Positions 5,545 through 61,130 are shown, counted from the first letter of the stretch. The stretch is DNA of 64,000 bases from an uncultured archaeon (GCA_964645535.1 CAZYCQ010000006.1:37583-101582), one strand, 5' to 3'. Program-made: numbers and translations. The notes: generated from the letters alone by a model not told the origin.

Positions 5545-6363
5545 TCAAGTCCTTTGGTAGATCACGGAAATCCATCTTTGCAGAGTCCCTGCCTTCATTC
5601 CTTCACGTGCTTCAGGTAGGAAGTCAATTTCCATCACCTCTTCCATAGCCTTATCTTCAGGAATCCCTTCATTCCGTAGCTTTTCACCAAGGTCAATGAT
5701 CTTGCCCATGTATTCATGGTATGTCTTGATAACCTCAAGTGTATCTACAGGAGACCCATGACCTGGAATGACCCATTCGGGGCGAATCTCAAGGATTCTC
5801 TCCATTGCAGATTTCCAATCATAAGGTGAGGCAGTTGGGTCTCCACCCCATGGAAATCGTCCTACAAACAGGTTATCCCCTGCAAAAATAACATTATCCG
5901 TTTTGAGATGAATAAGTACAGAGCCAGAAGTATGTCCCCCTGTATGGATTATTTCCACATTGTCGATTTCTTCTGGAACAAAGGGATTAGTTGAAAAGAC
6001 CCTGCTTGGAGGGGTCGGCTCAAGATCAAGGAACTGTTCATCCTGCTTCCTGACTCTGTCAAGGAATTCTTCAGTCATGTAATTTTTTTCAAAATTCTGG
6101 AGAGCCAACTGATGACCATACATCGGCACGTCATGAAAAACCTGGCTCCCACCGGTATGGTCGAAGTGGTAATGGGTGAATACCCCACCCAACAATTGTC
6201 CTCCCCTAATGGTTTCAAGCGATTGACGAATCTCGCGTGCCACCTTGGGATACATGGATGTATCAATCAGAAATTTCCCGGATTCCAAGGCAATAAGACC
6301 GACATTTCCGACGGTACTTCCATCGGTGATGGCATAGACGTTTTCAGTCACTTTTTCGAACAT
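5545..6363 (-). CDS. Metallo-beta-lactamase-fold hydrolase
   Basis: THYHFDHTGG, GHTSG, AGDN, IPGHG; start moved to ATG at 6363 (MFEKV). Confidence 0.9.
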   Translation of the reverse strand: MFEKVTENVYAITDGSTVGNVGLIALESGKFLIDTSMYPKVAREIRQSLETIRGGQLLGGVFTHYHFDHTGGSQVFHDVPMYGHQLALQNFEKNYMTEEFLDRVRKQDEQFLDLEPTPPSRVFSTNPFVPEEIDNVEIIHTGGHTSGSVLIHLKTDNVIFAGDNLFVGRFPWGGDPTASPYDWKSAMERILEIRPEWVIPGHGSPVDTLEVIKTYHEYMGKIIDLGEKLRNEGIPEDKAMEEVMEIDFLPEAREGMKAGTLQRWISVIYQRT

Positions 6364-6538
6364 AATGAGCCATGATTGATGCAAATGATAAAAATGATTG
6401 GCTTGAGGTAAAAAAGCACCAATATTTAGTGGAAAACAATCAATTGGACGAGATCCAAATTCATCACCACTATTCCGAAAATGCATAAGCGAAAATTTGT
6501 GGTCTTGATTCAGCATTTAATTTGAAATGTATTAGTGT

Positions 6539-8257
6539 GTGATTGTGACTCAAAAGGGACTGGGAAAACACTTTGTCGTGTTGATTATTGTGATAGGTGC
6601 AGGATACTTCTTGGCGCCACAGGAAATGGAAGAAGGAAAGTATTCCTCCTCATTTATCCTTGATGGAAAAAAAGTTCAGGACATCTCTTTCATGGTCAGC
6701 AGCTTGAAGAGCAGCAAAACAACCACTGCACGGTTCAATATTTCATCAACGACATTTGAGATTACCTATCTGGAAACCTATGCTAACGACCTAGGATCAA
6801 AAATTTGGTTTTCGGTGAGGGTTTTTAGCTTAAACGCCGATATCAGCAAAGAATATCGTGAAAGACTAAACCTGAGGGTTGAAGGATCCAATGAATTTGC
6901 CATCACACTTGCACCAAAATATACAGGCACAATTGATTTTAGTTTCCGAGTTCTTAGATATTCACAGATCATCCTGCCTCTTCTCATGGCAATTGCTTAC
7001 CTATGGTTGACTGAACTCATTCCCCTCTCTGCCGCATCCCTCATTGTGCCGGCAGTCATAATCATTTTCGACATTGATACATCAACATCAGCTCTATCTC
7101 CCTTTTTCTCGAAAATTATTGTCCTCTTTTTTTCAGGGTTTCTCCTTGCTAAAGCAATGCAACGGGTAAAGCTAGATGAATATTTATCATTGCTCATCCT
7201 CTCCAAGATACCACCAAACGGAAACATTTTACTGTTAATTCTCATGAGCTTGACTGCCTTTTTTTCAATGTTCATGAGCAATACCGCGGCTGCCGCTGTT
7301 CTTATCCCACTTTCGCAATCACTATTGGGAAAAATCGATGAAGATCATGAGACCTTTCAAAAAGTGACAGTGCTAGGCATCGCCTACGCCGCAACCATGG
7401 GAGGCATTGGATCACTTATTGGAACACCACCAAACCTGATGGCGGTAGAGTTTGTCTCTTCATATGAAGGTGTCGAAATCGGTTTTCTTGATTGGTTCTT
7501 TTTTGGATTGCCTGTCATGATGGTTATGATACCTATAATCTATCTTTACCTCAGATGGAAGTACAAACCGACAATTTCACGAAATGCGTTGAAAGAAACA
7601 AAGAGAACCGCACTTCTCACCTTAAAGGAACATCATAAATTTTCAAAAGATCAATGGATTGTGTCAATCGTGTTCATCGGAATTGTTGGGTTTTGGCTAA
7701 CAGAGCAGTTCCATAACATCCATGCAGGAATTATCGCCTTGATCGCGGCAATCGTCCTGTTTTTTGCAGGACAGATACAGGAAGAGGACGTCAATTCAAT
7801 CAACTGGAATGTTCTTCTTACTTTTGGTGGAGGAATCTCTCTCGGCTCGATCGTTCTGAAATCAGGACTTGCAGAATGGTTTGCCTCATTGTTCATTTCA
7901 CTTAAAGGAAGTCCAATATGGTTGATCCTCCTCAGTCTCGGAATTTTCGCCCTAATTCTCACTGCTTTTGCTTCAAACACCGCTTCAGCAGCCATCCTTA
8001 TTCCAATTGCAATGCCTATTGGTAATCTCTTCGGATTGAACCCTGTAACCTTGGCAATCTATATTGCAATCGTCTGCTCTGTCGATTTCGCAATTGTCAT
8101 AGGCACTCCAACAACCCTGCTTGCATATAGTACTGGAATGTTCAAGGTCAAGGAGATTTTTCAAATCGGCATCATATTGGATCTAATAGGCCTGATCCTA
8201 ACTTGGACTATGGCCGCATTGCTATTTGAACTGAGTTTCCAAATCCTCTTTCCATAG
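6539..8257 (+). CDS. DASS/SLC13 family anion:sodium symporter with extra N-terminal soluble domain
   Basis: Twin SNT motifs (MSNTAAA, ASNTASA), IGTPPN, many TM helices. Confidence 0.88.
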   Translation: MIVTQKGLGKHFVVLIIVIGAGYFLAPQEMEEGKYSSSFILDGKKVQDISFMVSSLKSSKTTTARFNISSTTFEITYLETYANDLGSKIWFSVRVFSLNADISKEYRERLNLRVEGSNEFAITLAPKYTGTIDFSFRVLRYSQIILPLLMAIAYLWLTELIPLSAASLIVPAVIIIFDIDTSTSALSPFFSKIIVLFFSGFLLAKAMQRVKLDEYLSLLILSKIPPNGNILLLILMSLTAFFSMFMSNTAAAAVLIPLSQSLLGKIDEDHETFQKVTVLGIAYAATMGGIGSLIGTPPNLMAVEFVSSYEGVEIGFLDWFFFGLPVMMVMIPIIYLYLRWKYKPTISRNALKETKRTALLTLKEHHKFSKDQWIVSIVFIGIVGFWLTEQFHNIHAGIIALIAAIVLFFAGQIQEEDVNSINWNVLLTFGGGISLGSIVLKSGLAEWFASLFISLKGSPIWLILLSLGIFALILTAFASNTASAAILIPIAMPIGNLFGLNPVTLAIYIAIVCSVDFAIVIGTPTTLLAYSTGMFKVKEIFQIGIILDLIGLILTWTMAALLFELSFQILFP

Positions 8258-8311
8258 TCATCATTGCAGCAGAAGAGCAAAAGACTATGTTTTATATTCA
8301 ATGTCAGAACC

Positions 8312-9517
8312 ATGATTGTGAAAACCTTCCCCAAAATGGTCAAATGGGAAGAAGCTATGCAACTGATTTCCTCCCATATTCGACCAATTGCTGATGAAGA
8401 ACCAATCTCCATCAATGATGCATATGGACGAATAGCAAGCAGAAACGTCACTGCAACCCGACAGATCCCAGCATTCCCCATGTCCCTCGTCGACGGATTT
8501 GCAGTCGCAGATGACTCTGGAGAATGGACAATTGTAGGAGAAGTCAAGATCGGAAAACAGCACCAGATCAAACTCGAAGAAGGACAATGTGCACGAATCG
8601 CAACAGGTGGGATAGTACCCGAAGGAACATACGCCATTCTCAAAATAGAGGACGTTCAATTGACACAAACAGAAACACAAGGAACTGTCATCTATTCAAA
8701 AGAAATCAAAAAAGGAAATGAATTCGTCCCGGCAGGAAGTGACATTCCCTTGGGAAAAACCATACTCAAACACGGCCAACGAATTGGCTTCAAAGAAATC
8801 ACAGTACTATCCGCCCAAGGACATCCCGCAGTCTTCGTCAAACGAAAACCAAGAATCTTCCTGATCATCACTGGTCATGAAATCAAACCCCCAGGAGTAG
8901 AGCTGCAACATGGTGAAACATACGATTCCACATCGGCAATGCTACGGGCACTTGTCACACGCCTAGGAGCAGAAATTCTTGAAGTCATCTATGTGGGAGA
9001 AGACGTCGATTCAATCAGAGCCGCTCTAGGACAGTCAATGCCCATCGCAGACCTCATCATAACAACAGGAGGAACATCGGTAGGAAAGGCAGACAACGTC
9101 GCAAAAACAATCGAAATGCTCGGTCAAATCATCTTCCATGGAATGAACGTCCGACCAGGAAAACCAATGCTCTTCGGAATGATTGAAGGAACACCAATCC
9201 TAGGATTCCCGGGATTTGTAACCTCAAGCCTCGTCATGGCTCACCTTCTCCTCCCAAAAGTCATTGCAGACCTCTATGGAATCCCTCCCATCGAATTGAA
9301 ACAAACTCAAGTCCAACTGGCAAATGATATCAAAGGATACCTAGGATGGAACCGTATCATCCCAGGAAAAATCATCCAAGGAAAATTCCACTCAACTTTC
9401 AAAACAAGCGCAGCACTAAGCAGCTTCGCAGAATCTCAAGGATATATCCACCTGAAACCGGACGAGGAGATCGCAAGAAAAGGAGAAACCAGACTGTTCA
9501 CCCACTTCATCAAATGA
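8312..9517 (+). CDS. moeA: Molybdopterin molybdenumtransferase
   Basis: SLVDGFAV, IATGG.VP.G, TTGGTSVG..D, RPGKP, PGF; start moved to ATG 8312. Confidence 0.9.
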   Translation: MIVKTFPKMVKWEEAMQLISSHIRPIADEEPISINDAYGRIASRNVTATRQIPAFPMSLVDGFAVADDSGEWTIVGEVKIGKQHQIKLEEGQCARIATGGIVPEGTYAILKIEDVQLTQTETQGTVIYSKEIKKGNEFVPAGSDIPLGKTILKHGQRIGFKEITVLSAQGHPAVFVKRKPRIFLIITGHEIKPPGVELQHGETYDSTSAMLRALVTRLGAEILEVIYVGEDVDSIRAALGQSMPIADLIITTGGTSVGKADNVAKTIEMLGQIIFHGMNVRPGKPMLFGMIEGTPILGFPGFVTSSLVMAHLLLPKVIADLYGIPPIELKQTQVQLANDIKGYLGWNRIIPGKIIQGKFHSTFKTSAALSSFAESQGYIHLKPDEEIARKGETRLFTHFIK

Positions 9518-9614
9518 AGCAAAATTCATTGACTAATCAGATTCGATCTGAAATGCAGACCATCAGCTTTACACAATGATTGCAACCTATGCCAGATACT
9601 CCATTGTAGCATCA

Positions 9615-9857
9615 GTTTCAATCCCTAATGGGTCTTCACCCTCTCATAACAAGTCAACATAGGATTTTAAAAAATGTAGACCCATGGTTTCAATCCCTTA
9701 AGGGTTCTCATCTCTCGCGACCAAGATTGACATGCTGAAAAACCATGGAGAAGGGTTCAAACCCTCATATGTTTTCAGCAGTTACAACAAGTCAACATAT
9801 AATTTAAAAAAATGTGGGGTCATGGTTTCAATCCCTTATGGGTTATCATCTCTTGAC
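9615..9857 (-). CRISPR. Degenerate orphan CRISPR-like mini-array (4 diverged repeats, 3 spacers)
   Basis: Repeats at 9615-9650, 9687-9721, 9754-9788 (most diverged) and 9825-9857; three begin GTTTCAATCCCT. Reverse complement of repeat 2 is GTCGCGAGAGATGAGAACCCTTAAGGGATTGAAAC (CCC/GGG hairpin plus ATTGAAAC handle). Spacers 36, 32 and 36 bp. No cas genes in window. Confidence 0.6.
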
Positions 9858-9879
9858 AAAGACTAATTTTATAACTTAA

Positions 9880-10491
9880 GTCATTCTACATAAAATTTAC
9901 GAAAACAAATATGACTTTTGCATCGATTCAAAAGAATCACAGTTTTCAGAAGCTGTCCTCATAAAATTCAAAATCACATCCAGATCAAGTAACTCACGAA
10001 TTATTGCTATATTCATACCAAGAAGAAACATAAAAATAGATGGTAAAGCATACGAAGACATCGTAAAAATTCTTTCCGAGAAGGCAAGAGTTGAAATCAA
10101 AAACCCCGCATATAGATTGACCCCATTACTCGAAAATATGGAAGAAGATATACGGCAGCTGAAATTAAGGATACTTGCAACATTTTTCACCCCACCACAG
10201 ACTTTCTTCGCACCATCTGGAAGAATAATCTCCCTGCCCGAATTTAGTGTCAGAAACGGAAGGGACGTCCATATACTCGACCTAGAACAGCCAAGCCAGG
10301 AATTGATCCATATATTGGATGAAATCGAATTCCTCCAACCTGTACTCAAAAACTTGGATCGAACAATAAGGAATTGGGCATATCAAACTACAGATACAAC
10401 GATTAAAAACCTCATCGAAAAACTTACCAAAAATAACCAACCGTCCAAATTTGTTGAGATGCTGATTCAATGGCTCCAAAGATTCCGATGA
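9880..10491 (+). CDS. Hypothetical protein; frame open from 9880 but no ATG/GTG/TTG before 10117 (non-canonical start or 5' truncated)
   Basis: Stop-free frame checked by hand from 9880 to 10491; the ORF track reports only 10117..10491. Confidence 0.45.
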   Translation, partial: VILHKIYENKYDFCIDSKESQFSEAVLIKFKITSRSSNSRIIAIFIPRRNIKIDGKAYEDIVKILSEKARVEIKNPAYRLTPLLENMEEDIRQLKLRILATFFTPPQTFFAPSGRIISLPEFSVRNGRDVHILDLEQPSQELIHILDEIEFLQPVLKNLDRTIRNWAYQTTDTTIKNLIEKLTKNNQPSKFVEMLIQWLQRFR

Positions 10492-10762
10492 GAACCTTCC
10501 GAAAATTATAATTACTTCAAAATACTACTTCAATTGTCTACGGACGGACATGGAATTTCAGTGCGAGATTCGAAACATGGTGCTGAAAAACCAATAGTAG
10601 ATCCTTCTAAAGGGCGTGTAGCTCAGCTTGGTAGAGCAGCGGGCTTTTAGGGTGTATTCAAAGATACCCGAAGGTCGAGGGTTCAAATCCCTCCACGCTC
10701 ATATTTTTTTTGTGTGTATTTTGTGGAAGGATTTATTATTGTTTTTTTCATTTTTGTGAACG
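10492..10762. other. Candidate replication origin (strand-composition switch)
   Basis: Hand counts on + strand: G3/C14 at 10381-10440 versus G18/C6 at 10861-10920, both inside + strand ORFs. Confidence 0.4.
10612..10701 (+). tRNA. tRNA-Lys(UUU) with 16-nt intron at 37/38 (10650-10665)
   Basis: Acceptor GGGCGTG/CACGCTC-A, D arm GCTCAGCTTGGTAGAGC, anticodon TTT at 10646-10648, BHB helix CTTT/AAAG, T arm GAGGGTTCAAATCCCTC, downstream T-run. Confidence 0.93.
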
Positions 10763-11110
10763 ATGGAAGATCGTATTATTCGGGAGCAATTTGAGGAAGT
10801 TTTGGATTATTTTCATGGTAATCGTTTTCGTATTTTATCGGATCGAGATGTTGACGGTCATCGTACGGTTACGTTATCTAAGTACGGAGCAATATTGGTT
10901 TTGGTTTTGGAGGGTAATGTGATAGCTTTTGACACGTATGCAGATTTGAAGGCAGGCATTTATGAGTTGGGTGAATTGAATACGTTGGTCAGTGTTATGC
11001 TTCAGGCGAAGCGTATGTGTTTGGATCGTGGTTTTCGTGAGATGAATACAACGGAGCGTCTTTATCCTAGGGATCGTCGTGGTTCAGAGACACGGACGTC
11101 AGGCTTGTAG
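10763..11110 (+). CDS. Hypothetical protein
   Basis: 115 aa ATG ORF followed by a T-run; no recognised motif. Confidence 0.6.
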   Translation: MEDRIIREQFEEVLDYFHGNRFRILSDRDVDGHRTVTLSKYGAILVLVLEGNVIAFDTYADLKAGIYELGELNTLVSVMLQAKRMCLDRGFREMNTTERLYPRDRRGSETRTSGL

Positions 11111-11133
11111 TTTTTTTTTGCTGTTGTTATTTT

Positions 11134-12441
11134 TTAGTATGCTTTGTATGGTATGAGGAATAGTTTGCTTTGGAAGATAAACCAGAATAGGAGTAGTTGG
11201 AACATTAGAGTGATGAAGAGTGATGATGCGAAAGCTATTGGATATCTTGATTGATTTTTCTTGACGAGTTTTGAGTATCCTATACCTACGAGGAATACAT
11301 AGATGAAGAACATTAGGAATATTGGCAGAGCGACGAGGAATAGGAATGGGAGTGTATCTTTTTCTTCGATGGACAGTTCTTCACTGGATGGGTGGAATCC
11401 TACAAGTTCTTGGTAGAAAATTCCTGCGAATAGTTGTGCGAATGCTAGTACGAATATGGCAATTCCTGCGAGGAGTATAGCGCTATTCATGAAATTTTTG
11501 GAGAAATTTCCGGTGACGAGTCCGATGACCAAAGGTTGGAGGATGATATATGATAGTAGTACACCGAATATCATGAGGTAGAAGCTGATCCAGAATTGTA
11601 AAAATCCAGCATTTGCTTCATTTGCTCGTATTGAGTTGATGCTGAATGTATTAAAGCTAAGGAAATAGAAGAGTCCTTTTCCATTTACGACGATTGATGT
11701 GAAGAATGAGGAGCTGATGAATGCGAGAAATAGGAACCACCACGGGAGTATTTCAGCGTATGCACCTCTTGTAGGTCGTGTAATGAATTCAGGGATGAAC
11801 TTGAGCATACTTTTGACTTCTTCTGATTTTGACACGAGGAATGAGGTAATAAATCCGGGCACCAGAAGGAAGATTGCATAACTTGCGAGGGTGATGGCGA
11901 ACTGTGTTGGGCTGATGCTCAGAGCCACAAGGAGGTTATTGGTGATTGAAATAGCTGGGCTGTTGTTGAGGAAGAACATGGGGAACCAGAATGCGGAGAA
12001 GACGATTGCAAGAAGTGCCAAGGTTGTCATGATGAGTTTTGGTTTTTGGGGGACGTTATTGTACCATAGTTTTTCTTCGACGACCTCATCAACGATTGGT
12101 TCGAAGTCGTCGAGGATTCTTCCATCGATTTGGAGATCTTGGTATTTTTCCCTGAATCTGGAGATGAATTCATTGAGGAGTTCTTGTGCATCTCCTTCGT
12201 CCATTCGTTTATCAAGTGTGAGGACGAACAGGAGGTCGGCCTGTCTTTCCTTGAAGATGGTTCGGACGTTTTGGAGGTCGAGGTTTTCGATTTTTTCTCC
12301 TTCGGTTTCGGCGGTCATGCTGTAGACTGCGCTGATAAGTCCAGCGGTCAAAGATACATCAGTCTCGATTTCTTTTTGGCTGAATTGTTTGGAGAAGTAT
12401 ATTTGTCCATAGGTTGTCATGACAAGCAGTGTCTTGATCAT
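11134..12441 (-). CDS. Longin-like domain fused to a multi-pass membrane region (C-terminal part Yip1-like)
   Basis: Start moved to ATG 12441: MIKTLLVMTTYGQIYFSK..LTAGLISAVYSM..LLFVL..F...FREKY longin pattern, then about 7 TM helices. Confidence 0.7.
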   Translation of the reverse strand: MIKTLLVMTTYGQIYFSKQFSQKEIETDVSLTAGLISAVYSMTAETEGEKIENLDLQNVRTIFKERQADLLFVLTLDKRMDEGDAQELLNEFISRFREKYQDLQIDGRILDDFEPIVDEVVEEKLWYNNVPQKPKLIMTTLALLAIVFSAFWFPMFFLNNSPAISITNNLLVALSISPTQFAITLASYAIFLLVPGFITSFLVSKSEEVKSMLKFIPEFITRPTRGAYAEILPWWFLFLAFISSSFFTSIVVNGKGLFYFLSFNTFSINSIRANEANAGFLQFWISFYLMIFGVLLSYIILQPLVIGLVTGNFSKNFMNSAILLAGIAIFVLAFAQLFAGIFYQELVGFHPSSEELSIEEKDTLPFLFLVALPIFLMFFIYVFLVGIGYSKLVKKNQSRYPIAFASSLFITLMFQLLLFWFIFQSKLFLIPYKAY

Positions 12442-12695
12442 TGTCTCGTACCTAAAGAGACGGCTTTCACATATAAATGGAACGGATTCCTGATTGGAAT
12501 TTGCAAGAGAATGGAGGTGGAGAAATGTGCAAGATACACCGAAGGGGTTTAAATACCGAATCAAGGTTTAATAATTTCCAAGATCGGTGATGCATTTCGG
12601 AATTTTTTTCATAAACCATAATTGTTATAAATATATCCTCGATAATTGGTTTATTTCTTGGAAAAATTGATGAATTTTTCCGAGAGGTGAGATAT

Positions 12696-14099
12696 ATGAA
12701 AGGTAAAGGAATAAATGCAATCCTTCTGAGTCTGGTTTTCCTCATGTCCTTCATGTTGGTTGGGCAGATCAATGGAAATACCAACGTTCAAATGATCATT
12801 CCTGACGTAACGACTGATGAATATGCAGTTGAATTTTTCACGGAATTTGATGCAGGGACAGGGAGCGGAACGCTTCCGACATTGGAGCCCTTTTGGACTG
12901 ACATAGTGAATACCGAAAGAGTGGAAGAAACCGGGGAAGATGTCTATGTTGCGGTATTGGATACCGGCTTGTTGCCACAGTGGGACTTTTTCTTTTCTGA
13001 AGCGAATATTGCAGCGGATTTGGGAGTTGGGTTCACGCATGACATTTTCTTTGATTCCAGCGGCAATTTGGTGGTTGGTCCATTGAAACAGGTTGGTTTT
13101 GTTACAGAATTGGCGAGTGGTCATGGGACTCATGTGACAAGTACAATTGTTGGGTTCAACCTGAACAACCAGGTGTGGGTTGATGGGATTGCCCCAGAAG
13201 CGACAATCATTCCAGTGAGAGTTCTGGATGCTTGGGATCTCGGTGGCGGGTTGAGGCTGAGTGGTGGATTCAATGACATGATTGCAGCAGGGATCATGTA
13301 CGTTGCCGATCTAGCGGATGAATTGGATGGCAAGATCATAATAAACATGTCTCTTGGTGGACCAAATCCTTCGCAATTGATTGAAGACGCCATCAACTAT
13401 GCGATAAGCAAAGGAGTGATCGTTGTGGCCTCAGCCGGCAACAGCGGGTTCAATGGGATGGGATATCCCGGGGCATTTTCCCAGGTGATTTCGGTGGGTG
13501 CTGGAGGCTGGACAGACATGTTCACGAATTGGTGGGACACAGGAGCTCCAGAACAGCTGAACGTACCTGATTCTTTGGGCAATGAGATGCAACTGTACCT
13601 TGAGGATTTCAGTTCTCGTCCGAATCCTCTGTTGGGGCAAACCACAGATCTTCTTGATGTGACCGCTCCCGGTGCTTGGGTGGTTGGTCCATTCAAGAGT
13701 TCATTCAGGGAGAACACAGGATATTATTTTCTTTCAGGGACAAGCATGGCGGCTCCCCACATTAGTGGGATTGCGGCCTTGGTAGCGGAGGAGGAAGAAG
13801 ATGTCACACAGGCACAGATGGAAATTCTGCTCAAAATTGCGGCTAGTGGGGAAGATTTCAATGCTTTCAGAGGCTTCCCGTTTATCGGCAATGATGTCAA
13901 GGTTGCGTTTCCCTTTATTCCGGGAGGATTCTACACTGTATCTTGGGGATTAGGGGAATTCGGGACAGGCTTTATAGATGCGGAAGTTGTCATGGAATTG
14001 GCGCATGAACTTGATGATGATGATGATGGATTCAATGACCTGATTGCAGATCTATTGGAAAAGTTGGAGGATTTTTACGAGGATCTCTTTGAAGATTGA
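12696..14099 (+). CDS. Secreted S8 subtilisin-like serine protease
   Basis: Signal peptide, VLDTG, HGTHV, SAGN, GTSMAAPH; SD GAGGTGA before ATG 12696. Confidence 0.93.
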   Translation: MKGKGINAILLSLVFLMSFMLVGQINGNTNVQMIIPDVTTDEYAVEFFTEFDAGTGSGTLPTLEPFWTDIVNTERVEETGEDVYVAVLDTGLLPQWDFFFSEANIAADLGVGFTHDIFFDSSGNLVVGPLKQVGFVTELASGHGTHVTSTIVGFNLNNQVWVDGIAPEATIIPVRVLDAWDLGGGLRLSGGFNDMIAAGIMYVADLADELDGKIIINMSLGGPNPSQLIEDAINYAISKGVIVVASAGNSGFNGMGYPGAFSQVISVGAGGWTDMFTNWWDTGAPEQLNVPDSLGNEMQLYLEDFSSRPNPLLGQTTDLLDVTAPGAWVVGPFKSSFRENTGYYFLSGTSMAAPHISGIAALVAEEEEDVTQAQMEILLKIAASGEDFNAFRGFPFIGNDVKVAFPFIPGGFYTVSWGLGEFGTGFIDAEVVMELAHELDDDDDGFNDLIADLLEKLEDFYEDLFED

Positions 14100-14113
14100 A
14101 GTAAACGTAAGAT

Positions 14114-14203
14114 GTAGATGAATCATATTTTTATATTAAACGTAGATGAATTATATTTCAAACGGATTTACGTGTAGATGAATTACGTCTGTTTGTAGAT
14201 GAA
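14114..14203. repeat. Four copies of GTAGATGAA between convergent genes
   Basis: Copies at 14114, 14142, 14174 and 14195; the last lies in the final EF-2 codons. Confidence 0.7.
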
Positions 14204-16426
14204 CCGTGCCCAAGTGTCGATTGTTGGAACTTCTTCTTTGAGACCGTTTCTCTTTCTGATGAAGGCGATTTTCTCGTCTCGCAGATGGGGTGGAACTTCC
14301 TCGAAGTGGCTGAACTGATATCCAAAGAAACCTCGTCCTGCGGTGGCACCACGGATTTCATCAGCCAGTCCCACAGTCTCGGATGTTGGGATGAGACCCT
14401 TGATCATGTTGGAACCGCCTGCTTCCTTGATTTCTTGGATGATCCCTCTGTGCTGTGTCAGAAGGCTGGTAATGGCGCCGACATATTCAGGGGGTGCCTT
14501 GATATCGATGGTAAGCATGGGTTCGAGCAATTTGGGACCTGCTGTGAGGTAACAGAGGTTACATGCAGCGGACACCATTGCCATGATTTCGGTCAATCCC
14601 GTGTGAGCCGGATCTGTGTGGACGGTTGCATCGGTCATGACGAAGAGAACGCCCATCAGGGGTTCTCCAGCAAGGGTTGCTTTTCTTGTGAATTGCTTCC
14701 AGGTGTTGATGACGAATTCCTTGATTCTTTCAAGTCTTTGAACACCTTTGGTGGATTCAATGAAGAGATTGGTGTCGGAAGATGCCCAGAATCCTCTGAA
14801 GAATTTTTCGTCGAATTCGGGATATTTTTCGGTGTCCATATGTTGTGCCAAGAGTTTGGCTCTTTCCTTGGTATCCATCATGGTAAGATCCTTTCCTTCC
14901 TTGAGGAAGTCGATCATGGACTGTGGCAGGGGATAGAGCTTCATCTGGATTCTGTTGTGTCCATTGGGTGACTTGGTGGTGAATACCTCGGATTCTTTTG
15001 AGATGGTTTCCCTGTGGACAATGACTGGATCAGAAACTTCGATCGGAACCTGTTCATTGATACGGGTGATAAGGATCTCGATTTGGAGGGGATCAATTCC
15101 TTGGAGGGTATATTTCTTGGTTTCGGGATCCATTTCATAGGAGGCAGTTGGGTCTGCCATGATCCAAGTACTGATGACCTTGCCCAATTTAGCGACATCG
15201 GTCTGTTTCTTGGGGAAGATAGACCTTGAAACAACAGGTTCGGCGGCATATGAAATGGCTTCGAATCCGGGAATGTTTGTTCCCTCTCTTGTGAAGGATT
15301 CACCGGCGGGACAAATGAAGCCGTCTGCTGCGAAGAGGTTTCCGGCAGGGATCTTTGGAACGGGAAGGATGTCATCAAGTTCCATGACACCAAGTCTTGT
15401 GATGTTTGCCTTTTGTCGTCCGTTGATGAGATAGATCTTGTCGGTATCCTTGAGTGTTCCTGAGAATACACGTCCGATGAGCGTTGGTCTCTTGGTTCTT
15501 GGATGGATGAAGATCTTGGTGATCATTCCAAGGAGTGGTCCATTGGGATCACAATTCAACAGTGCCTGACCGGCTTCGGATTCAAGGTCACCGGGCCAGA
15601 TTTTGGGGATCTTGATTTTTTGGGATTCGCGGGGGTTGGGTAGGTGTTGGATAACCATTCTGAGAAGGGCGTCATCCAACGGAAGGTTTTTCCTCAACCA
15701 AGCCTTGTCATCCTCAGCATACTTCTGGAAAACTGACTGTGGAGTAAGCTTCTTTTCCTTGAGGATCTCAACAGTGAATGCCCATCCGTCTTTTGCGGAG
15801 CCTACAGCAACGGAGTTGTCTTGGAAGGAGACCCTCCAGCTCTTCTTGAATTCTTTTGGAACGATTGCCTTAATCTTGTTGTTGACTTGTGAGACGATGA
15901 TGTCCAATCTAGAGAATACATCCTTGGGATCAAGCTTCAGTTCAGAGATCAATCGGTCTACCTTGTTGATGAAAAGGACTGGTTTACAGAATTCTTCACC
16001 GACAGCCAGTTGGATGTTTGTTTCAGTCTGTGTCATCATTCCTTCAAGGGCGTCTACAAGGATAATTGCACCATCCGAACCACGGAGGGCTCTTGAGACT
16101 TCACCCGTGAAGGAAAGGTGACCGGGAGTGTCGTTGATTTGGAAGATGTAGTCATTGACCGTTCCGTCTTCTTCTGTGTATTGGTAAGAAAGGATGACAA
16201 CAGTTGTGAAAATAGTAATTCCTCTTTCCTGTTCTTCCTCGTCTAGGTCAGTCATCCTTTTGTCTCCAGCAGTTTCAGCAGACATGAGACCAGCCTTTGC
16301 CAGAAGGTAGTCTGCGGTGGTGGACTTCCCATGATCGATATGAGCTGCAATAGAGAAGATTCTGCGCAGCTCGATGGGATGATTCATGATCATGTTCCTG
16401 ATTTCTTCGGTGTTCTTTACTTTCAT
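14183..16426 (-). CDS. fusA: Translation elongation factor 2, probably the aEF-2p paralog
   Basis: AHIDHGKST, ERGITI, DTPGHLSF, NKVD; diphthamide loop reads HTDPAHTG instead of HRG. Confidence 0.92.
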   Translation of the reverse strand: MKVKNTEEIRNMIMNHPIELRRIFSIAAHIDHGKSTTADYLLAKAGLMSAETAGDKRMTDLDEEEQERGITIFTTVVILSYQYTEEDGTVNDYIFQINDTPGHLSFTGEVSRALRGSDGAIILVDALEGMMTQTETNIQLAVGEEFCKPVLFINKVDRLISELKLDPKDVFSRLDIIVSQVNNKIKAIVPKEFKKSWRVSFQDNSVAVGSAKDGWAFTVEILKEKKLTPQSVFQKYAEDDKAWLRKNLPLDDALLRMVIQHLPNPRESQKIKIPKIWPGDLESEAGQALLNCDPNGPLLGMITKIFIHPRTKRPTLIGRVFSGTLKDTDKIYLINGRQKANITRLGVMELDDILPVPKIPAGNLFAADGFICPAGESFTREGTNIPGFEAISYAAEPVVSRSIFPKKQTDVAKLGKVISTWIMADPTASYEMDPETKKYTLQGIDPLQIEILITRINEQVPIEVSDPVIVHRETISKESEVFTTKSPNGHNRIQMKLYPLPQSMIDFLKEGKDLTMMDTKERAKLLAQHMDTEKYPEFDEKFFRGFWASSDTNLFIESTKGVQRLERIKEFVINTWKQFTRKATLAGEPLMGVLFVMTDATVHTDPAHTGLTEIMAMVSAACNLCYLTAGPKLLEPMLTIDIKAPPEYVGAITSLLTQHRGIIQEIKEAGGSNMIKGLIPTSETVGLADEIRGATAGRGFFGYQFSHFEEVPPHLRDEKIAFIRKRNGLKEEVPTIDTWARFIYKQT

Positions 16427-16526
16427 AGTGAAATCCCAACTTTGATGTTTTTGGCTTTAGCCTAACTTAACTCCAATACCCATTCAGTCTTTAAAATATC
16501 ATAGATATTGACACCCAGTATATTAT

Positions 16527-17219
16527 TTAGATCAATGATTTAAGGAATGCTATGATCTGTTTCTTTCCAATTTTTGAGGTGCCGTATTCTCTATTTCGGA
16601 AGACATAACCGAACTCACAGATTTTTCCATCCTTAGGGAAGACCTTCAGCACATCAAAAAGGAATTTGTATCCCGTAAATTCGAGGATTTTGTCATTTTC
16701 GGCATATTTTGTGAGAACACTGGTTTTACCTCCGAAGAATCCTGACATGATATCCTTTGGGATTTGCTTTCTTCTGAGTAATAGGGAGATTTTGCCAAGT
16801 GTCTGAGCCCCTACAGAAATCAATTTTCTTGTAAAGGGCCATTCCTCGATATGATCTCGTCTGCCGATAATAAGATCCGGATCTTGATCCATGCATGCAA
16901 TGGCATCCTGAATGGATTCAGGGGGGTGTTGAAAATCTCCATCCATTATGATGAACCACTCGGTTTCGGTATGAAGTATGCCATCCCTTATTGAAATTGT
17001 CAATCCCTTTACGGGTTCTGATTGTCTATCAAGTAATCTGACATTTGGATATTTTTTTGATTTTTCTCGAACGATATCCGTTGTCTTGTCCGTTGAGCCA
17101 TCATCCACCACGACAATGTGTATCCCGGGATAGAGTTCTTGGATTTTGTCTATTAAGCGACCGATATTTTGTTCCTCATTTAGGGTCGGGACGATTACCG
17201 TAATGTTGGAAAATTCCAC
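16527..17219 (-). CDS. GT2 glycosyltransferase (dolichol-phosphate mannosyltransferase-like)
   Basis: VPTLNE, VDDGSTD, MDGDFQH, D.MSGF. Confidence 0.88.
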   Translation of the reverse strand: MEFSNITVIVPTLNEEQNIGRLIDKIQELYPGIHIVVVDDGSTDKTTDIVREKSKKYPNVRLLDRQSEPVKGLTISIRDGILHTETEWFIIMDGDFQHPPESIQDAIACMDQDPDLIIGRRDHIEEWPFTRKLISVGAQTLGKISLLLRRKQIPKDIMSGFFGGKTSVLTKYAENDKILEFTGYKFLFDVLKVFPKDGKICEFGYVFRNREYGTSKIGKKQIIAFLKSLI

Positions 17220-17402
17220 AAGGCATCATTTTTTCGAGTTTTCTAAGACTTTTGGTCAAGTTCGCACCATCAAAGCATTAAATCATAGACGAGTTCACAA
17301 TTTTGTCATGATTTGTGATGATTTGTCAATCAAAGATGCAGGGGCGGATGAATGGACTCTAAATTGAATAGGTTTATATCTTGATCTGTTCAAAAGGTTA
17401 CC

Positions 17403-18533
17403 ATGAGTATACTTTTTTGGGCATTCATCATTTCGCATGGGTTGAATGTCATTGGTTCGATCCTGATTATGATTCCGTTAATCCGTCTTTATTACCGAAC
17501 AGGAATTTCTCTTGTAAATATCATGATCATGTTGTTTGGGGTATGGGGCATAACCAACTTGCTTCTTATCATCCCAAATGTTCTTGAAATTCAGATTTTA
17601 CCAATAGCACTGGCAAATATTATCGGTTCGGCATTTGCACCTGCGTTATTCCTTTTGTTTGCGGATAGGTTCGAAGGGAGAGTTTCCCCTCTCAAAACAT
17701 CGGTAGCCGTCTCAATGATTCTTTTATCCATTTTCGTGGTTATTGTGAGCTTATGGACAGGAATACTTGACATTGCAACAGTTGTGCTCATTATTGAATC
17801 GGAATCCTTGATCACCATGAGATGGGCAGAGATACCATCTCTTTTTCTTTTTCCGGGAATTCTTCTTACTGGATATTGGGTCAGGCAGGAGTTGAAGAGC
17901 ACAGGTGAGCATGCGATTGATGAAAGGCAGATTGAACAGATTAAGTGGATGCAACGGGGGAATTCGTTGACATTCTTCATTGGACCGATTTTTGGTGCTA
18001 TTGGAGTGATACTGGTTTCTTTGGACAATCCGATGGCAGGAACTTGGGCATCGGAAATAATCGGATACCTGATTGTTTCGGCCGGTGTATTCATCTTTGG
18101 GATTAACTATCTGCTATCACCGGAAGTGGCATTCCTTCAACCTCAACGGGTGGATACCTTATTGGTTCTTCATGAGACAGGTGTTCCGGTGCTCCGGTAT
18201 GATTTTCGACCACCAGAGATTGAAGCAGATACAGCATTGGTCAGTGGAGCCATTACCGCCATTACTGCAATTATGAATGAGGCGTTCGGAGTGAAATCCA
18301 TGGTCAGGTCAATTCATTTTGAAGACAAAGAGTTGATGCTCCAATTTGCAGATGGTCTTGCTTTTGTGCTTATTGCAGACAGAACTTCGATTTTCCTTGA
18401 AAGCTCTCTGAAAAGGTTGAAAGAAGAGTTTGAATTAAATTTCATTGAGAAATATGATTTTGGAGGTGGGGAAATTCTGGATCAGGCAATATTTTTGCCT
18501 GCGATCCTCAAAAGTTTCGGACTGAAAAGTTGA
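17403..18533 (+). CDS. 7TM membrane protein with C-terminal longin-like domain
   Basis: Seven hydrophobic helices, then TLLVLHETGVPVL..LVSGAITAI..IHF.DKEL..AFVLIADR longin pattern. Confidence 0.72.
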   Translation: MSILFWAFIISHGLNVIGSILIMIPLIRLYYRTGISLVNIMIMLFGVWGITNLLLIIPNVLEIQILPIALANIIGSAFAPALFLLFADRFEGRVSPLKTSVAVSMILLSIFVVIVSLWTGILDIATVVLIIESESLITMRWAEIPSLFLFPGILLTGYWVRQELKSTGEHAIDERQIEQIKWMQRGNSLTFFIGPIFGAIGVILVSLDNPMAGTWASEIIGYLIVSAGVFIFGINYLLSPEVAFLQPQRVDTLLVLHETGVPVLRYDFRPPEIEADTALVSGAITAITAIMNEAFGVKSMVRSIHFEDKELMLQFADGLAFVLIADRTSIFLESSLKRLKEEFELNFIEKYDFGGGEILDQAIFLPAILKSFGLKS

Positions 18534-19732
18534 TTCCCGAAAAATTATTCAGAAATCCATTCATGACAGATAGGAGTAAAAACCAAGGGATTTTGATTGG
18601 GGACATGGAAGTTTTGAGCGAGAATGAGCTTCGGTTATATTGTCCATTGAAGTGGCATGAAGGGATTCCTGAAGGCGGAATAGGATTAGGTATTGCAGAC
18701 ATTGATTTCAAGGGACCAGAAGGGATAGTTGAATGGATTTCCTCAAGATTGACGGAAGAATATCATTTCTATCAGAAACGGGAGGGGTTGGATTTTGCCA
18801 TTGAGGCAGTGAAAGAATTTTTGAAGAGGAAGGAAATGGCGAATGCAACGATCCAATTGATACCGGGTACAATGGCAGGAATTTATGCAAGCATGAAATT
18901 TGCGTCTTCAATGGAAGGAGAGGTAGCAATTGTCAATCCAATCTATCCACCAGTGCATTTCCACGCCTCATCGGAAAAAAACAGGATCGCGTGGGTAGGT
19001 CTTGATGACCAATATCGATTGGATCATGACAGCCTTCAGGAAACAGTGTCAACTGATACAAAACTGCTTGGGATTGTTCATCCAAACAATCCAACAGGAA
19101 CAGTTTTCACAGACGAAGATTTTCGATTGATCCGGGATTTGGCAGTTGATTATGACTTTATCTGTTTCTCTGATGAGCTGTATGACCCATTGGCATTTAA
19201 TGGGGCAAAAAAAAGCCTTGGCTCATTTGAAGGGATGGAAAACAGAACAATCACACTCTTCGGTTTTTCCAAGGCCTATGGACTTGCAGGATTGAGAGCA
19301 GGATTTATGGCAATTCAGCTTCAGGATTCAACAAAGATCCAGGAAATTGTGGAGCACCTATTGGTTTCTCCATCTCCTGTAACATCGATAGTGACAGAGT
19401 ATGCATTGAAAGAAGAGAAAGTTTTGAAATGGGTGAAAGATTTCAGGGAGACCATGAGAGTGAATATGGAATTTGCAAGCAAGGTGTTTGATGATGAAGG
19501 TTATAGCTGTCCAAAACCAGATGGCGGGTTGTTTGTCTTTCCAGATATAGGAAAGAAAGATGATGTCAGGTTCTGTGATCAGCTTCTTCGGGAAAAAGGG
19601 GTTGAAGTGGTGCCTGGTTCAAAATTCGGTCCAGATGGAATTGGTCACATCAGGGTGAATTGTGCTACATCGATGGAAAGATTGGAAGATGGAATCGGAA
19701 GAATTATCGAATTTTTGTCTTATGATAAGTAG
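18530..19732 (+). CDS. PLP-dependent class I/II aminotransferase
   Basis: PNNPTG, SDELY, GFSKAYGLAGLRAG. Confidence 0.9.
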   Translation: MIPEKLFRNPFMTDRSKNQGILIGDMEVLSENELRLYCPLKWHEGIPEGGIGLGIADIDFKGPEGIVEWISSRLTEEYHFYQKREGLDFAIEAVKEFLKRKEMANATIQLIPGTMAGIYASMKFASSMEGEVAIVNPIYPPVHFHASSEKNRIAWVGLDDQYRLDHDSLQETVSTDTKLLGIVHPNNPTGTVFTDEDFRLIRDLAVDYDFICFSDELYDPLAFNGAKKSLGSFEGMENRTITLFGFSKAYGLAGLRAGFMAIQLQDSTKIQEIVEHLLVSPSPVTSIVTEYALKEEKVLKWVKDFRETMRVNMEFASKVFDDEGYSCPKPDGGLFVFPDIGKKDDVRFCDQLLREKGVEVVPGSKFGPDGIGHIRVNCATSMERLEDGIGRIIEFLSYDK

Positions 19733-20388
19733 GTAGGAGGATCCTGATCAGACAATTTCAATGTTTTCAGGAAGAGATGAAGGTCTTCACTGAATTTTTC
19801 CGCTTTATCAATTGATTGTTCAAGAATTGAATTGAGATCTTTTGCCAACATGAATTGTTTGAAATCGATTTCCTTGTGGTAGATCTGTTTCATGAAAGCA
19901 CGTTGAGAATCATCCGCCTTGTTTTCCAATTCTTGAACCATTTTCAAGTTTGGAGTTTTTGAATCTTCAATCCATGTAAAAACTTCGGACAGGATGGAAT
20001 GAAGAAAATTCAGCATTTCGTCAAGATGACTTCTTATCCACTCTTCAATGGGGTATAGATCGATTCGATGACCAAATGCTTCAATGGAATCTATCAATGA
20101 TGAAAGACCCCTAGCCATATTGTACAATGATGTTTCCTTGAAAGGAAGGAAGATGCTTTCATTGATGATATTGTTGATCAATTCAATATAACTGTCGTTT
20201 CGTTCAGTCAGCCTAGACAGAAGGTCTTCCAATCCCTCCATGGATTGGTTTTCGATCATTTTCTTGAAATTTTCAACTTCGATAATCAGATTTGAGAGGA
20301 CAAGACCGAAAACATCTATTGTTCTGGCTTCCACAGTTTGATGCAGCAAATCCCTGTTTTCATTGGAGGAATTTTCAACCATACCCAT
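19720..20388 (-). CDS. DUF47/PhoU-like helical protein
   Basis: ELENKADD and LE..IDKAE repeated helical pattern. Confidence 0.6.
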   Translation of the reverse strand: MGMVENSSNENRDLLHQTVEARTIDVFGLVLSNLIIEVENFKKMIENQSMEGLEDLLSRLTERNDSYIELINNIINESIFLPFKETSLYNMARGLSSLIDSIEAFGHRIDLYPIEEWIRSHLDEMLNFLHSILSEVFTWIEDSKTPNLKMVQELENKADDSQRAFMKQIYHKEIDFKQFMLAKDLNSILEQSIDKAEKFSEDLHLFLKTLKLSDQDPPTYLS

Positions 20389-56956: not shown

Positions 56957-57130
56957 ATGGTAGAACTACTCGTCCAATCCAAAGTTAGAGCATACATCAA
57001 AGAAGCAGGTCTGAACACCGGAGGCGACAGCCTTGAAGCAATCGAAAAGGCCCTTAAAGGGATCTTGGATGATGCAATCCGCAGGGCAAAAGCCAACGAC
57101 AGGAAGACCTTGATGGCAAAGGATGTATAA
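56957..57130 (+). CDS. Short histone-fold protein (alpha3-truncated, face-to-face type)
   Basis: Not in ORF track (57 aa): MVELLVQSKVRAYIKEAGLNTGGDSLEAIEKALKGILDDAIRRAKANDRKTLMAKDV with RKTxxxxD; has promoter, SD and terminator. Confidence 0.88.
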   Translation: MVELLVQSKVRAYIKEAGLNTGGDSLEAIEKALKGILDDAIRRAKANDRKTLMAKDV

Positions 57131-57153
57131 TCTAGCTTTGGAATAAAACCAAC

Positions 57154-57184
57154 AAAAAAACACCCGCAAGGGTGATTTTTTTTT
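57154..57184 (+). terminator. Hairpin plus T-run terminator
   Basis: CACCC-GCAA-GGGTG followed by A and a T9 run, preceded by an A-run. Confidence 0.75.
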
Positions 57185-57259
57185 CGAATTCTCACGGATA
57201 ATTTTTCACTACAGTGCAAATCACAGGGTTTTTGAAAGCAGTTAAGCAATGTAAATTGA

Positions 57260-57538
57260 ATGCCTTCAAAAAGGGACTTGATTAGACAACAAGGTTATAA
57301 GAAATTAAAGAAAAAACGGATGAAGGAACTGGAAAAGCTGAAGACAGAGCTTGCAGCAGAGGAAGATCCAAAGCTACCTTCAAACAAGGGAGGGATGTGG
57401 AATATGGTTCTGGGATTGGTGTACATCATGATAGGAACCTTAGGTGCAGTGGTTGCCTTCATTTTCCAACAATTCTTTGTTGGGATTATTTTTGCGGTTA
57501 TCATGAACATTTTGGGTTGGAAGAGGATGTCCCGTTAG
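57260..57538 (+). CDS. Small membrane protein with basic N-terminus
   Basis: Lys-rich N-terminus and 2 TM helices. Confidence 0.55.
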   Translation: MPSKRDLIRQQGYKKLKKKRMKELEKLKTELAAEEDPKLPSNKGGMWNMVLGLVYIMIGTLGAVVAFIFQQFFVGIIFAVIMNILGWKRMSR

Positions 57539-58119
57539 TTTGTTGTAAGTTTACTGTTGGCATAAAACAATTGAAGAAGAAGTATTATGAGAGAGAGCAT
57601 CAACAACCCCAAAAGAATGAACATGAGAGGAAATGCGAAAAATTGACTTATAATACCGCCAAGCAGGAGAAGACCAATTCGTGTTGAATTTTCATAATAG
57701 ACGAATTTTGTGCTTATGTCCATTGAGCCAAATTTAGCATTGACATAGGAGATTGCCAAGGTCACCACCAATAAAGAAAGAACAACCAAGCGGGCTGTGG
57801 AAGAATCATCCATGAGATAGCCCATCAGAATTCCAGTCAGGATTACAACCTCAGAGAAAAATGAGCTTGCAAGGTCAATATACTCGATTCGGCTTTCTGG
57901 ATTTTCATTTACAATATATGTGGTAAGCTGATTGAAAATAAGATAAAGAGCCACAAAGGTCAGAAAATTGCTGAGATTTTCCAAATTGAAGAGAATGGCA
58001 CTTGCAAAAGCGCAGATTAGTTTGATGAACGAAAGAAGATGGGCGAAAGGGGGTGAAAAAAAGAATCGAGATTTTTTGGCATCATTATGTGTTGAAACCA
58101 CAAATATGATGGAACCCAT
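57535..58119 (-). CDS. Degenerate CDP-alcohol phosphatidyltransferase-like membrane protein
   Basis: YID...F.SE..IL.G, ISYVNAK, E...RI pattern; catalytic DG..AR motif absent. Confidence 0.55.
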   Translation of the reverse strand: MGSIIFVVSTHNDAKKSRFFFSPPFAHLLSFIKLICAFASAILFNLENLSNFLTFVALYLIFNQLTTYIVNENPESRIEYIDLASSFFSEVVILTGILMGYLMDDSSTARLVVLSLLVVTLAISYVNAKFGSMDISTKFVYYENSTRIGLLLLGGIISQFFAFPLMFILLGLLMLSLIILLLQLFYANSKLTTN

Positions 58120-58284
58120 GGCTTTTAAATCATTATGGCAGTGGCGTGGTTAAGCAAGTATTTCCATTGCATTCCCTTGTTGTCCATTATAGAGTGGAGA
58201 GAGAAATGAACAACCGTTGCAATTTAGCAACATAACATTCAGGTATTACCCAATTCCATAAAAGAAATCTGGAAAGTAGATAAC

Positions 58285-58581: not shown

Positions 58582-58644
58582 GAACAAAGAATTGACAAAG
58601 TCCATAAGTTATTTAACCCATTCAAGTACGAGTTGCCTTGAGTA

Positions 58645-61065: not shown

Positions 61066-61130
61066 GAAATCAAGCGTAGTGTAACATAAATATAAATAAA
61101 TTTTCACGACACACATGATTTGATTATTGG

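Follow-up and report, generated by a model that had tools for sequence, protein, structure and literature searches.

The DNA considered here is a 64,000-nucleotide stretch (the window) spanning positions 37583-101582 of contig C6, a 101-kb contig without a single N, in the 3.6-Mb genome of a Heimdall-group Asgard archaeon (Heimdallarchaeota; genome G000). At the only tRNA gene of the window, a tRNA-Lys(UUU) gene, the composition of the plus strand flips from A/C-rich to G/T-rich. The flip is confirmed as genuine, is present at synonymous sites and is independent of the direction of the flanking genes. It is well supported as one of approximately 40 mirror-image mutational footprints, each extending a few kilobases (kb) and centred on a tRNA gene, that are independent of the orientation of both the tRNA gene and its neighbours. 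Equally well supported is the polarity of these footprints: on both sides, the strand running 5'->3' away from the tRNA gene (here termed the outward strand) has become poorer in A and C and richer in G and T. These observations point to an undescribed DNA process starting at tRNA genes, and full-text literature searches returned no description of kb-scale skew anchored on such genes.

The flip had been noticed in a preliminary description of the locus through six hand counts of bases, every one of which is exact on recount, and its placing of the centre on the tRNA gene also stands. The step in keto skew, D, taken as the value for the 1.5 kb to the right of a position minus that for the 1.5 kb to its left and scanned along all contigs (standard deviation (SD) 0.067), is 0.36 at tRNA-Lys (z = 5.4), a value reached by 0.2% of genome positions. 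In 1-kb bins of the plus strand, GC skew is -0.18 and AT skew +0.19 at 9-10 kb, with the left-hand bias peaking over the gene for MoeA and an adjacent orphan reading frame and trailing weakly to ~5.5 kb (Table 1). To the right of the tRNA gene, GC skew is +0.34 at 11-12 kb and +0.20 at 12-13 kb, with AT skew of the opposite sign; in the next bins GC skew is +0.23, +0.17, and +0.14, and it remains positive to ~20 kb.

Gene orientation does not explain this pattern, in agreement with the preliminary description. Rough gene calls over the whole G000 genome gave 3044 open reading frames (ORFs), for each of which GC and AT skews at third codon positions (GC3 and AT3) were computed; their genome SDs are 0.18 and 0.16, respectively. 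In MoeA, orf115, and orf476, GC3 skew is 0.48-0.73 in size, well beyond this background, and to the right of the tRNA gene it has the same sign, read on the plus strand, in genes on either strand. The coding strand of MoeA, which is transcribed toward the tRNA gene, is driven A/C-rich; that of orf476 is likewise A/C-rich, the opposite of its neighbour orf115, so that both genes yield a G/T-rich plus strand. The fading of the bias over several kb is borne out by five further genes, encoded on both strands and reaching to 19.7 kb, in which GC3 skew is +0.16 to +0.36.

The identity of the tRNA gene at the pivot was obtained by excising an intron of 16-18 nt at the canonical 37/38 position. In its default mode ARAGORN reports zero tRNAs across the 64-kb window, missing the Lys gene altogether, and in intron mode it misplaces the intron and calls the gene tRNA-Stop(tta). 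Intron-bearing Asgard tRNAs are thus easily missed or miscalled, and the count of 43 tRNAs that ARAGORN gave for G000 is a lower bound. A 28-nt exact match between 10488-10515 of the window and C101:1040-1067 lies ~100 bp upstream of tRNA-Lys genes in both places (UUU here and CUU on C101). The match begins at the orphan reading frame's stop codon and could represent a promoter or leader common to the two genes, or else what is left of the element to which that frame belongs.

Across the genome, 14 sites have a D above 0.36 (>5 SD); every one has A/C to G/T polarity, with no site of the reverse polarity, and 14/14 sit on a tRNA gene, in either tRNA orientation. The pattern is shown by ~90% of the 43 tRNAs, the 500 bp to the left being A/C-rich in 95% and those to the right G/T-rich in 87-92%, and the mean bias fades over 3-6 kb. 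In a fine-scale profile of all tRNAs, oriented by the tRNA, the flip falls within 50 bp of the gene on both sides; an exponential fit from the gene edge gives an amplitude of 0.24 and a length constant of 2.2 kb upstream, and 0.13 and 1.1 kb downstream. None of 2208 intergenic sites lying more than 8 kb from a tRNA has a |D| as high as 0.3, and the mean step is zero in each of the divergent, convergent, and tandem classes of gene pair. Lowering the threshold to 0.24 yields 26 upward steps, of which 20 coincide with tRNAs, and 11 downward steps, which mostly lie 1.4-3.6 kb from a tRNA and hence mark the outer edges of footprints. Five of the weaker upward steps (D 0.24-0.31; C7:66289, C42:11305, C36:17907, C79:7643, and C14:14157) have neither an ARAGORN tRNA nor an Rfam match and could represent hidden multi-intron tRNAs, former tRNA sites, or another type of anchor. 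Of the two readings offered in the preliminary description, an atypical origin or some other fixed site of strand-asymmetric mutation, it is the second that holds, with the tRNA gene itself as the anchor and the pattern recurring genome-wide.

The nature of the bias is best seen at 4-fold degenerate sites, where, with gene orientations balanced, the outward strand within 500 bp of tRNAs has A.255, C.122, G.247, and T.376, against a strand-symmetric background of.306 for A/T and.194 for G/C. Codon positions 1 and 2 move the same way, by ~0.1, and protein sequences are thereby altered as well. Changes on the G000 lineage were polarised solely from sites at which the same-genus genomes G001 and G002 agree and G000 differs. 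On the outward strand, A>G is the commonest of these third-position changes in each of four genes, located on both sides of the tRNA (orf115, 10/34; orf476, 35/104; EF-2, 43/138; MoeA, 20/78), and A>T and C>T come next.

Comparison with orthologues shows that the footprint is positional and has been acquired. The nearest relatives are metagenome-assembled genomes labelled 'Candidatus Heimdallarchaeota archaeon', with EF-2 identities of 93, 89, and 83%. In four genomes (G000 and its same-genus relatives G001, G002, and G003), mbl, MoeA, orf115, orf476, EF-2, and GT2 lie near one another in the tRNA-Lys neighbourhood (window 5545-20388), in three orders and orientations with the tRNA as pivot: the orf115-orf476 and mbl-MoeA blocks are both inverted in G000 relative to G002 and G001, and G003 has a third order. 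Judged from these gene orders, the tRNA-Lys locus is a rearrangement hotspot. Coding-strand GC3/AT3 skews of MoeA are -0.48/+0.52 in G000, +0.07/-0.12 in G002, +0.03/-0.03 in G001, and +0.03/+0.02 in G003. Those of orf115, for which orthologue identity is 77% (G002) and 66% (G001), are about +0.72/-0.53, -0.20/+0.09, +0.19/-0.01, and +0.11/-0.01 in the same order of genomes, and those of orf476, the G002 orthologue of which is inverted and 3 kb from the tRNA, are about -0.63/+0.40, +0.14/0.00, +0.11/-0.13, and +0.05/-0.09. For EF-2, coding-strand GC3 skew is -0.36 here vs -0.13 in G002, -0.07 in G001, and -0.03 in G003, and GC3 content is 0.54 in G000 vs 0.39 in G002. Orthologues are therefore not equally skewed wherever they are located; the same genes are skewed here and not where they are inverted or farther away, and the weak skews of G002 carry the sign predicted for each gene given its orientation and the side of its tRNA on which it lies.

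Two genes of the window lack counterparts at the corresponding loci. The subtilase gene has no tblastn match at the syntenic loci of relatives, including G002, G001, and G003, and is probably a recent insertion, to judge from this distribution; the symporter gene is unmatched at the G002 locus, where mbl adjoins MoeA. Both of these apparent recent arrivals are less skewed than the genes beside them, which fits a bias that accumulates with residence time.

The same comparisons bear on the suggestion that the flip is an artefact or an accident of history, produced by an assembly join, by inversion of DNA that was already skewed, or by import at a tRNA integration site. The locus is indeed rearranged with respect to relatives, and tRNA genes are common integration sites. 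Nevertheless, the flanking housekeeping-type genes have orthologues in the relatives that are nearly unskewed, so that inversion cannot create the pattern; ~40 tRNAs share this polarity, and none of the steps above 5 SD runs the other way; and the contig contains no N. A second copy of the 22-nt tRNA 3' end, as expected of an attachment (att)-type repeat, was not found in the 64 kb at <=3 mismatches, nor was an integrase domain found in the ORFs flanking tRNA-Lys. The assembly join or inversion breakpoint that the preliminary description had named as a refuting condition thus does not account for the flip, and this class of explanation is highly improbable.

The site is also not the chromosomal origin, canonical or atypical, and that interpretation merits scarcely any credence. 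An origin-like polarity and a sharp switch are what recommended it. Cumulative GC skew on the 101-kb contig climbs on both sides of the site without a V-shaped minimum, however, so the anomaly is local; rather than one to a few sites per chromosome there are 14 steps above 5 SD and ~40 patterned tRNAs in 3.6 Mb; and the bias has a decay length of ~1-2 kb instead of extending over a replichore. The origin-like polarity is nonetheless meaningful, as a local start or restart of synthesis anchored on the tRNA is among the candidate mechanisms. The absence of a cdc6 neighbour, noted earlier, is upheld: Cdc6_C matches occur solely at C50:17064, C50:9013, and C12:37987, with none on C6, and the ORFs within +-10 kb of the tRNA carry Pfam families other than those of orc1/cdc6 or whiP. 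None of the three orc1/cdc6 loci has a keto-skew step. C50 itself (23.9 kb) is a compositional outlier with a GC of 0.36 that carries two orc1/cdc6 genes, SRP (signal recognition particle) RNA, a partial large-subunit (LSU) rRNA, and a footprint-less tRNA-Arg(CCT); it represents either a mis-binned contig or the true region of the origin.

Nor do the local sequences that had been put forward as possible shared elements recur at other switches. The motif TGCTGAAAAACCA has three matches in the genome, two of them in this locus, and TACTTCAA has 226, of which 9 are near tRNAs vs ~8 expected by chance. The repeats at 9.6-9.85 kb, which had been noted as co-located with the switch, are a local tandem duplication without recurrence at the other switches. 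This 138-bp duplication, with its 24-nt units, is the sole repeat found in a repeat search at the locus, which gave no inverted repeats. It resembles a CRISPR array, yet two 'spacers' duplicate one another, and related sequence is present on C58 and C98.

The distribution of the footprint was surveyed at ~20 tRNAs per genome with 5 kb on each side, and is expressed as keto skew in the first 500 bp to the left and right. Within the genus, G001 (-0.14/+0.16) and G002 (-0.10/+0.12) have footprints with both GC and AT components, and G003, with a GC content of 35%, has none. In the same order, the closed genome G015 has an AT-only footprint (AT skew +0.20/-0.12; A -0.036, T +0.041, with G and C unchanged), and G012 has none; the complete genome of the cultured Asgard archaeon Lokiarchaeum ossiferum also has none. 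The footprint thus varies by lineage and is on or off among close relatives, and the negative genomes indicate that the method does not generate the signal from promoter or terminator sequence.

Other RNA genes behave unequally. RNase P RNA has no footprint in 5/5 genomes and SRP RNA has none in G015 or G020, but the LSU rRNA operon is footprinted in those two genomes (-0.16/+0.24 and -0.29/+0.16). The SRP RNA and LSU copies of G000 are negative, a result of little weight as both lie on the outlier C50.

The patchiness among relatives bears directly on selection as a cause. Selection for G/T-rich outward strands, for example as polar motifs or termination signals insulating tRNA genes, would suit so regular a pattern anchored exactly at the gene; it is very improbable, as the bias is strongest at 4-fold and third positions with protein change a by-product, scales with the residence time of genes, and is lacking in close relatives with the same tRNA genes.

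The reading tentatively favoured here, on the basis of polarity, shape, and analogy, is that forks stall at tRNA genes and that restart or repair synthesis then runs outward. DNA synthesis would repeatedly start or restart at tRNA genes, and in some relatives at rRNA genes too, and would run outward for a few kb, the likeliest trigger being the stalling of forks at very heavily transcribed untranslated genes and their restart by recombination or repair. The outward-running strand, left single-stranded or copied by an error-prone polymerase, would gather A>G, A>T, and C>T changes; the chance of an event reaching a given distance would drop with that distance, giving exponential decay, and the process would differ between lineages. 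Outward synthesis or single-stranded exposure starting at the gene would account for the anchor, the involvement of the outward strand on both sides, the kb-scale decay, the loss of A and C, the independence of orientation, and the accumulation over time. As in restart tracts, the affected region is kb in scale, begins at a fixed point, and decays with distance, and the affected strand runs 5'->3' away from the site. Inversions that pivot on the tRNA are consistent with breakage and recombination there, and the presence of a footprint at the rRNA operon in G015 and G020, with none at the less-transcribed RNase P and SRP RNA genes, counts in favour of stalling. For eukaryotes, collisions have been proposed to occur at heavily transcribed tRNA genes (PMC6130373). 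In Schizosaccharomyces pombe, the lagging-strand template of forks restarted by recombination, which corresponds to the outward strand, is an RPA-coated gap of up to 30 kb and restart is error-prone (PMC7876095); error-prone restarted forks at an S. pombe barrier are also described by Iraqui et al. (2012; PMC3475662).

Several observations weigh against fork stalling and restart. Stalling, breaks, and restart are read from the polarity and shape of the footprint and from analogy. Conflict between transcription and replication ought to occur in every lineage, yet the footprint is absent from G003, G012, and Lokiarchaeum ossiferum, which calls for a lineage-specific factor; all general models need such an addition to explain why close relatives differ. 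Candidate repair enzymes do not supply it, in that the occurrence of EndoV, NucS, UDG, and CDA deaminases does not follow that of the footprint: searches of the 12 genomes of family f1 (G000-G011), among them the footprint-negative G003, gave no Endonuclease V and, for NucS/EndoMS, a weak match in G004 only, UDG is present in footprint-positive genomes, and approximately two CDA-fold deaminases occur in every genome. The spectrum of changes includes transversions (A>T and C>G), and the parsimony counts behind it are noisy and composition-biased, coming from three roughly equidistant taxa with ~60-65% protein identity. Protein divergence between G000 and G002 is no higher near tRNAs (typical identity ~65%, with no distance dependence), and for this reason a bias is claimed and not a higher rate. 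The relation of amplitude to codon demand is weak (Spearman rho 0.28, p = 0.09). Finally, the excess of the upstream over the downstream side, an expectation of head-on collisions, has p = 0.008 in G000 and is unseen in G002 and G015, and so is not taken as evidence for such collisions.

In the matter of repair enzymes, EndoV and NucS/EndoMS are both present in G015 and G020, whose footprint is without a G/C component. Seen in the gene content of two lineages only, this coincidence is suggestive.

Origin-like local initiation at tRNA genes differs from stalling and restart only in its trigger, which would be a new initiation instead of the restart of an arriving fork. Such initiation, for example R-loop-primed and independent of Orc1/Cdc6, would proceed bidirectionally for a few kb and leave mutations on the displaced or lagging-template strand. 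The classical origin polarity, with a flip exactly at the gene that is two-sided at most tRNAs, fits it; R-loops can prime unscheduled DNA synthesis (PMC4691750); and bidirectional cumulative skew is reportedly lacking in complete genomes of the Heimdall, Loki, and Odin groups (PMC11291895), leaving room for dispersed initiation. Approximately 40 efficient origins ~80 kb apart should, however, give a polarity that declines over tens of kb and not over 1-2 kb, and the short decay would mean that initiation is mostly abortive; neither the RNase P nor the SRP RNA genes carry a footprint, and close relatives with the same tRNA genes have none. It is accordingly regarded as rather unlikely. A possible but doubtful generalisation spans both triggers, namely that chromosome replication in this Heimdallarchaeota subclade starts or restarts mainly at tRNA genes (and, in neighbouring lineages, at rRNA genes), independently of Orc and driven by R-loops or recombination.

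Transcription itself offers another source of asymmetry. Outward untranslated read-through together with upstream antisense transcription, both driven by strong tRNA promoters, would expose the non-template strand (the outward one) in bubbles or R-loops, where it would gain A>G and C>T. At mammalian promoters, the non-template strand is enriched in G+T, with a mirror image upstream. Moreover, the flanks of eukaryote tRNA genes mutate 7-10 times faster, 5' > 3', which has been attributed to transcription (Thornlow et al., 2018; PMC6130373), and the rRNA operon is footprinted in G015 and G020. The pattern is centred on tRNAs, as such mutagenesis would be; yet it is not confined to the transcribed unit and some tens of bases, extending instead over 2-6 kb, with a scale of 1-2 kb or more vs the tens of bases seen in eukaryotes (PMC6130373). 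The bias overrides genes that are transcribed toward the tRNA (MoeA, orf476, and EF-2), ordinary coding strands are C-rich at 4-fold sites (genome-wide, C.232 and G.156), and divergent protein-gene promoters lack a step. Simple read-through predicts a stronger downstream side, the opposite of what is seen in G000. These mismatches make transcription alone an unlikely explanation.

A further alternative is a lineage-specific enzyme, for instance one derived from a tRNA-targeting mobile element, that nicks or cuts tRNA genes, with outward resection and repair synthesis following. The patchy spread among close relatives is as expected of a factor gained and lost, and there are rearrangements at the tRNA. 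An orphan protein family of 1005-1289 aa that adjoins tRNA genes was found in G000 and G002 only; its representative in the window is a C-terminal fragment, and every copy that could be assessed lies 15-180 bp from a tRNA gene, including the 1289-aa copy of G002, which ends 180 bp from one. The family has no match in Pfam, NCBIfam, PHROGs, or PADLOC, with no nuclease or recombinase domain recognised, and no usable match in a protein atlas, and it accounts for only two clusters among 5.8 billion proteins; its AlphaFold model, with a pLDDT (predicted local distance difference test) of 39, is unusable. It was not detected in G001, which has a full footprint, and on this ground is not proposed as the cause; it could be an element that targets tRNAs, or no more than a gene linked to them. 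As no att-type repeat or integrase was found in the window, and rRNA operons are footprinted in G015 and G020, a nicking enzyme is considered quite improbable.

Table 1. Features of the tRNA-Lys locus and copies of the orphan family. Positions without a contig name refer to the window; skews are given in plus-strand terms.
Feature	Position	Strand	Remarks
Na/sulfate-symporter-family gene	6539-8257	+	Pfam Na_sulph_symp; outer edge of left footprint; GC3 -0.16, AT3 +0.02 (nearly unskewed)
Left footprint	8264-10611	.	Plus strand A/C-rich, outward strand G/T-rich; GC skew -0.09 to -0.18, AT skew +0.17 to +0.19
MoeA (molybdopterin molybdenumtransferase)	8264-9517	+	Pfam MoeA_N, MoCF_biosynth, MoeA_C; transcribed toward tRNA; GC3 -0.48, AT3 +0.52
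Tandem duplication, 138-bp unit	9615-9853	+	Four 24-nt palindrome-bearing units (GTTTCAATCCCTTAAGGG..., palindrome CCCTTAAGGG), 67-72 bp spacing
Orphan family fragment, 203-codon open frame	9880-10491	+	No canonical start before 10117; C-terminal fragment
tRNA-Lys(UUU)	10612-10701	+	Rfam RF00005, 59.7 bits; single tRNA in window; pivot of flip
Right footprint	10702-19732	.	Plus strand G/T-rich; very strong to 12564, weaker but consistent to ~19.7 kb in both gene orientations
orf115, conserved small protein	10763-11110	+	62 bp from tRNA, transcribed outward; GC3 +0.73 (genome maximum), AT3 -0.53
orf476	11134-12564	-	Transcribed toward tRNA; GC3 +0.62, AT3 -0.36
Subtilase	12687-14099	+	Pfam Peptidase_S8; GC3 +0.16, AT3 -0.21; weaker than both neighbours
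EF-2-like GTPase	14183-16426	-	Pfam GTP_EFTU, EFG domains; 3.5-5.7 kb from tRNA; footprint still present
Orphan family fragment	C42:8718-9263		tblastn paralogue; ends 15 bp from tRNA-Arg(TCT)
Orphan family fragment	C24:2799-3275		tblastn paralogue; ends 110 bp from tRNA-Ile
Orphan family fragment	C97:68-508		Runs off contig end
Orphan family fragment	C154:3-182		Runs off contig end
Orphan family full-length copy, 1005 aa	C11:4555-7572		142 bp from tRNA-Met
Orphan family copy in a relative	L140:470-4339		
Orphan family copy in a relative	L141:3545-7408		

Two features of the window stand apart from the footprint. The product of orf476 has a weak, below-cut-off Pfam match to the clathrin-adaptor small-chain (longin-like) family (E 0.002) and may be a protein of the eukaryote-signature type typical of Asgard archaea. 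At 57000-64000 the plus strand is purine-rich (GC skew +0.08 to +0.18, AT skew +0.14 to +0.22), a signature that differs from the tRNA footprint and probably reflects a run of plus-strand genes.

The footprints have practical and biological consequences. Composition flips are the standard means of finding origins in uncultured prokaryotes, and in this genome they would give ~40 false origins, one per tRNA gene. The bias shifts codon usage and amino-acid composition near tRNAs and can distort phylogenies, binning, and codon-based predictions of expression and horizontal transfer. There is almost no experimental knowledge of replication in Asgard archaea; if the footprints do record synthesis from tRNA genes, they offer a readout, obtainable from sequence only, of stalling, restart, or dispersed initiation in these organisms, and the on/off pattern in genomes of the same genus would allow comparative genomics to seek the responsible factor. 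Were tRNA genes the main places of start or restart, the footprints would be a sequence-level record of their usage, and presence or absence in close relatives would mark a recent switch in DNA copying or repair among relatives of eukaryotes.

Several known systems share part of this pattern. Local deviations from strand parity in archaeal chromosomes have been described in a preprint (10.1101/2023.11.15.567178), which relates local archaeal skew to gene orientation and not to mutation; here, by contrast, synonymous sites show the largest deviation and gene orientation has no bearing on it, so that it is mutational. Mutagenesis at eukaryote tRNA genes (PMC6130373) is likewise centred on the tRNA, strikes the flanks, is attributed to very high transcription and possible fork collisions, and is stronger 5' than 3', as in G000; it consists of a raised rate over 10-40 bases with no kb-scale mirror skew, whereas the footprints described here are a strand-polar bias over kb with no rise in protein rate. 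Restart at RTS1 in S. pombe (Naiman et al., 2021; PMC7876095; Iraqui et al., 2012; PMC3475662) shares error-prone outward synthesis over kb from a fixed barrier, with the outward parental strand single-stranded, but it is an experimental system in a eukaryote for which no evolutionary compositional footprint is described, and tRNA genes would take the place of the barrier here.

Replication origins, both bacterial oriC and the archaeal Orc1/Cdc6 type, have in common with the footprints their polarity, independence of gene orientation, and a sharp switch at a point. Origins number 1-4, are associated with origin recognition boxes (ORBs) and orc1/cdc6, and lie at an extremum of chromosome-scale skew that is replichore-long, whereas here there are ~40 tRNA-anchored sites with a 1-2 kb decay and no such extremum, and the orc1/cdc6 loci of G000 are without a switch. 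In vertebrate mitochondrial DNA (cf. PMC8565317), C>T and A>G changes deplete the exposed strand of C and A to a degree that is graded with position. These gradients, which are strong enough to shape codon and amino-acid usage, resemble the present case in the bases lost, the changes responsible, and the grading with position; the mitochondrial case is a single replicon-wide gradient tied to strand-displacement replication, whereas the genome described here carries dozens of local, two-sided footprints.

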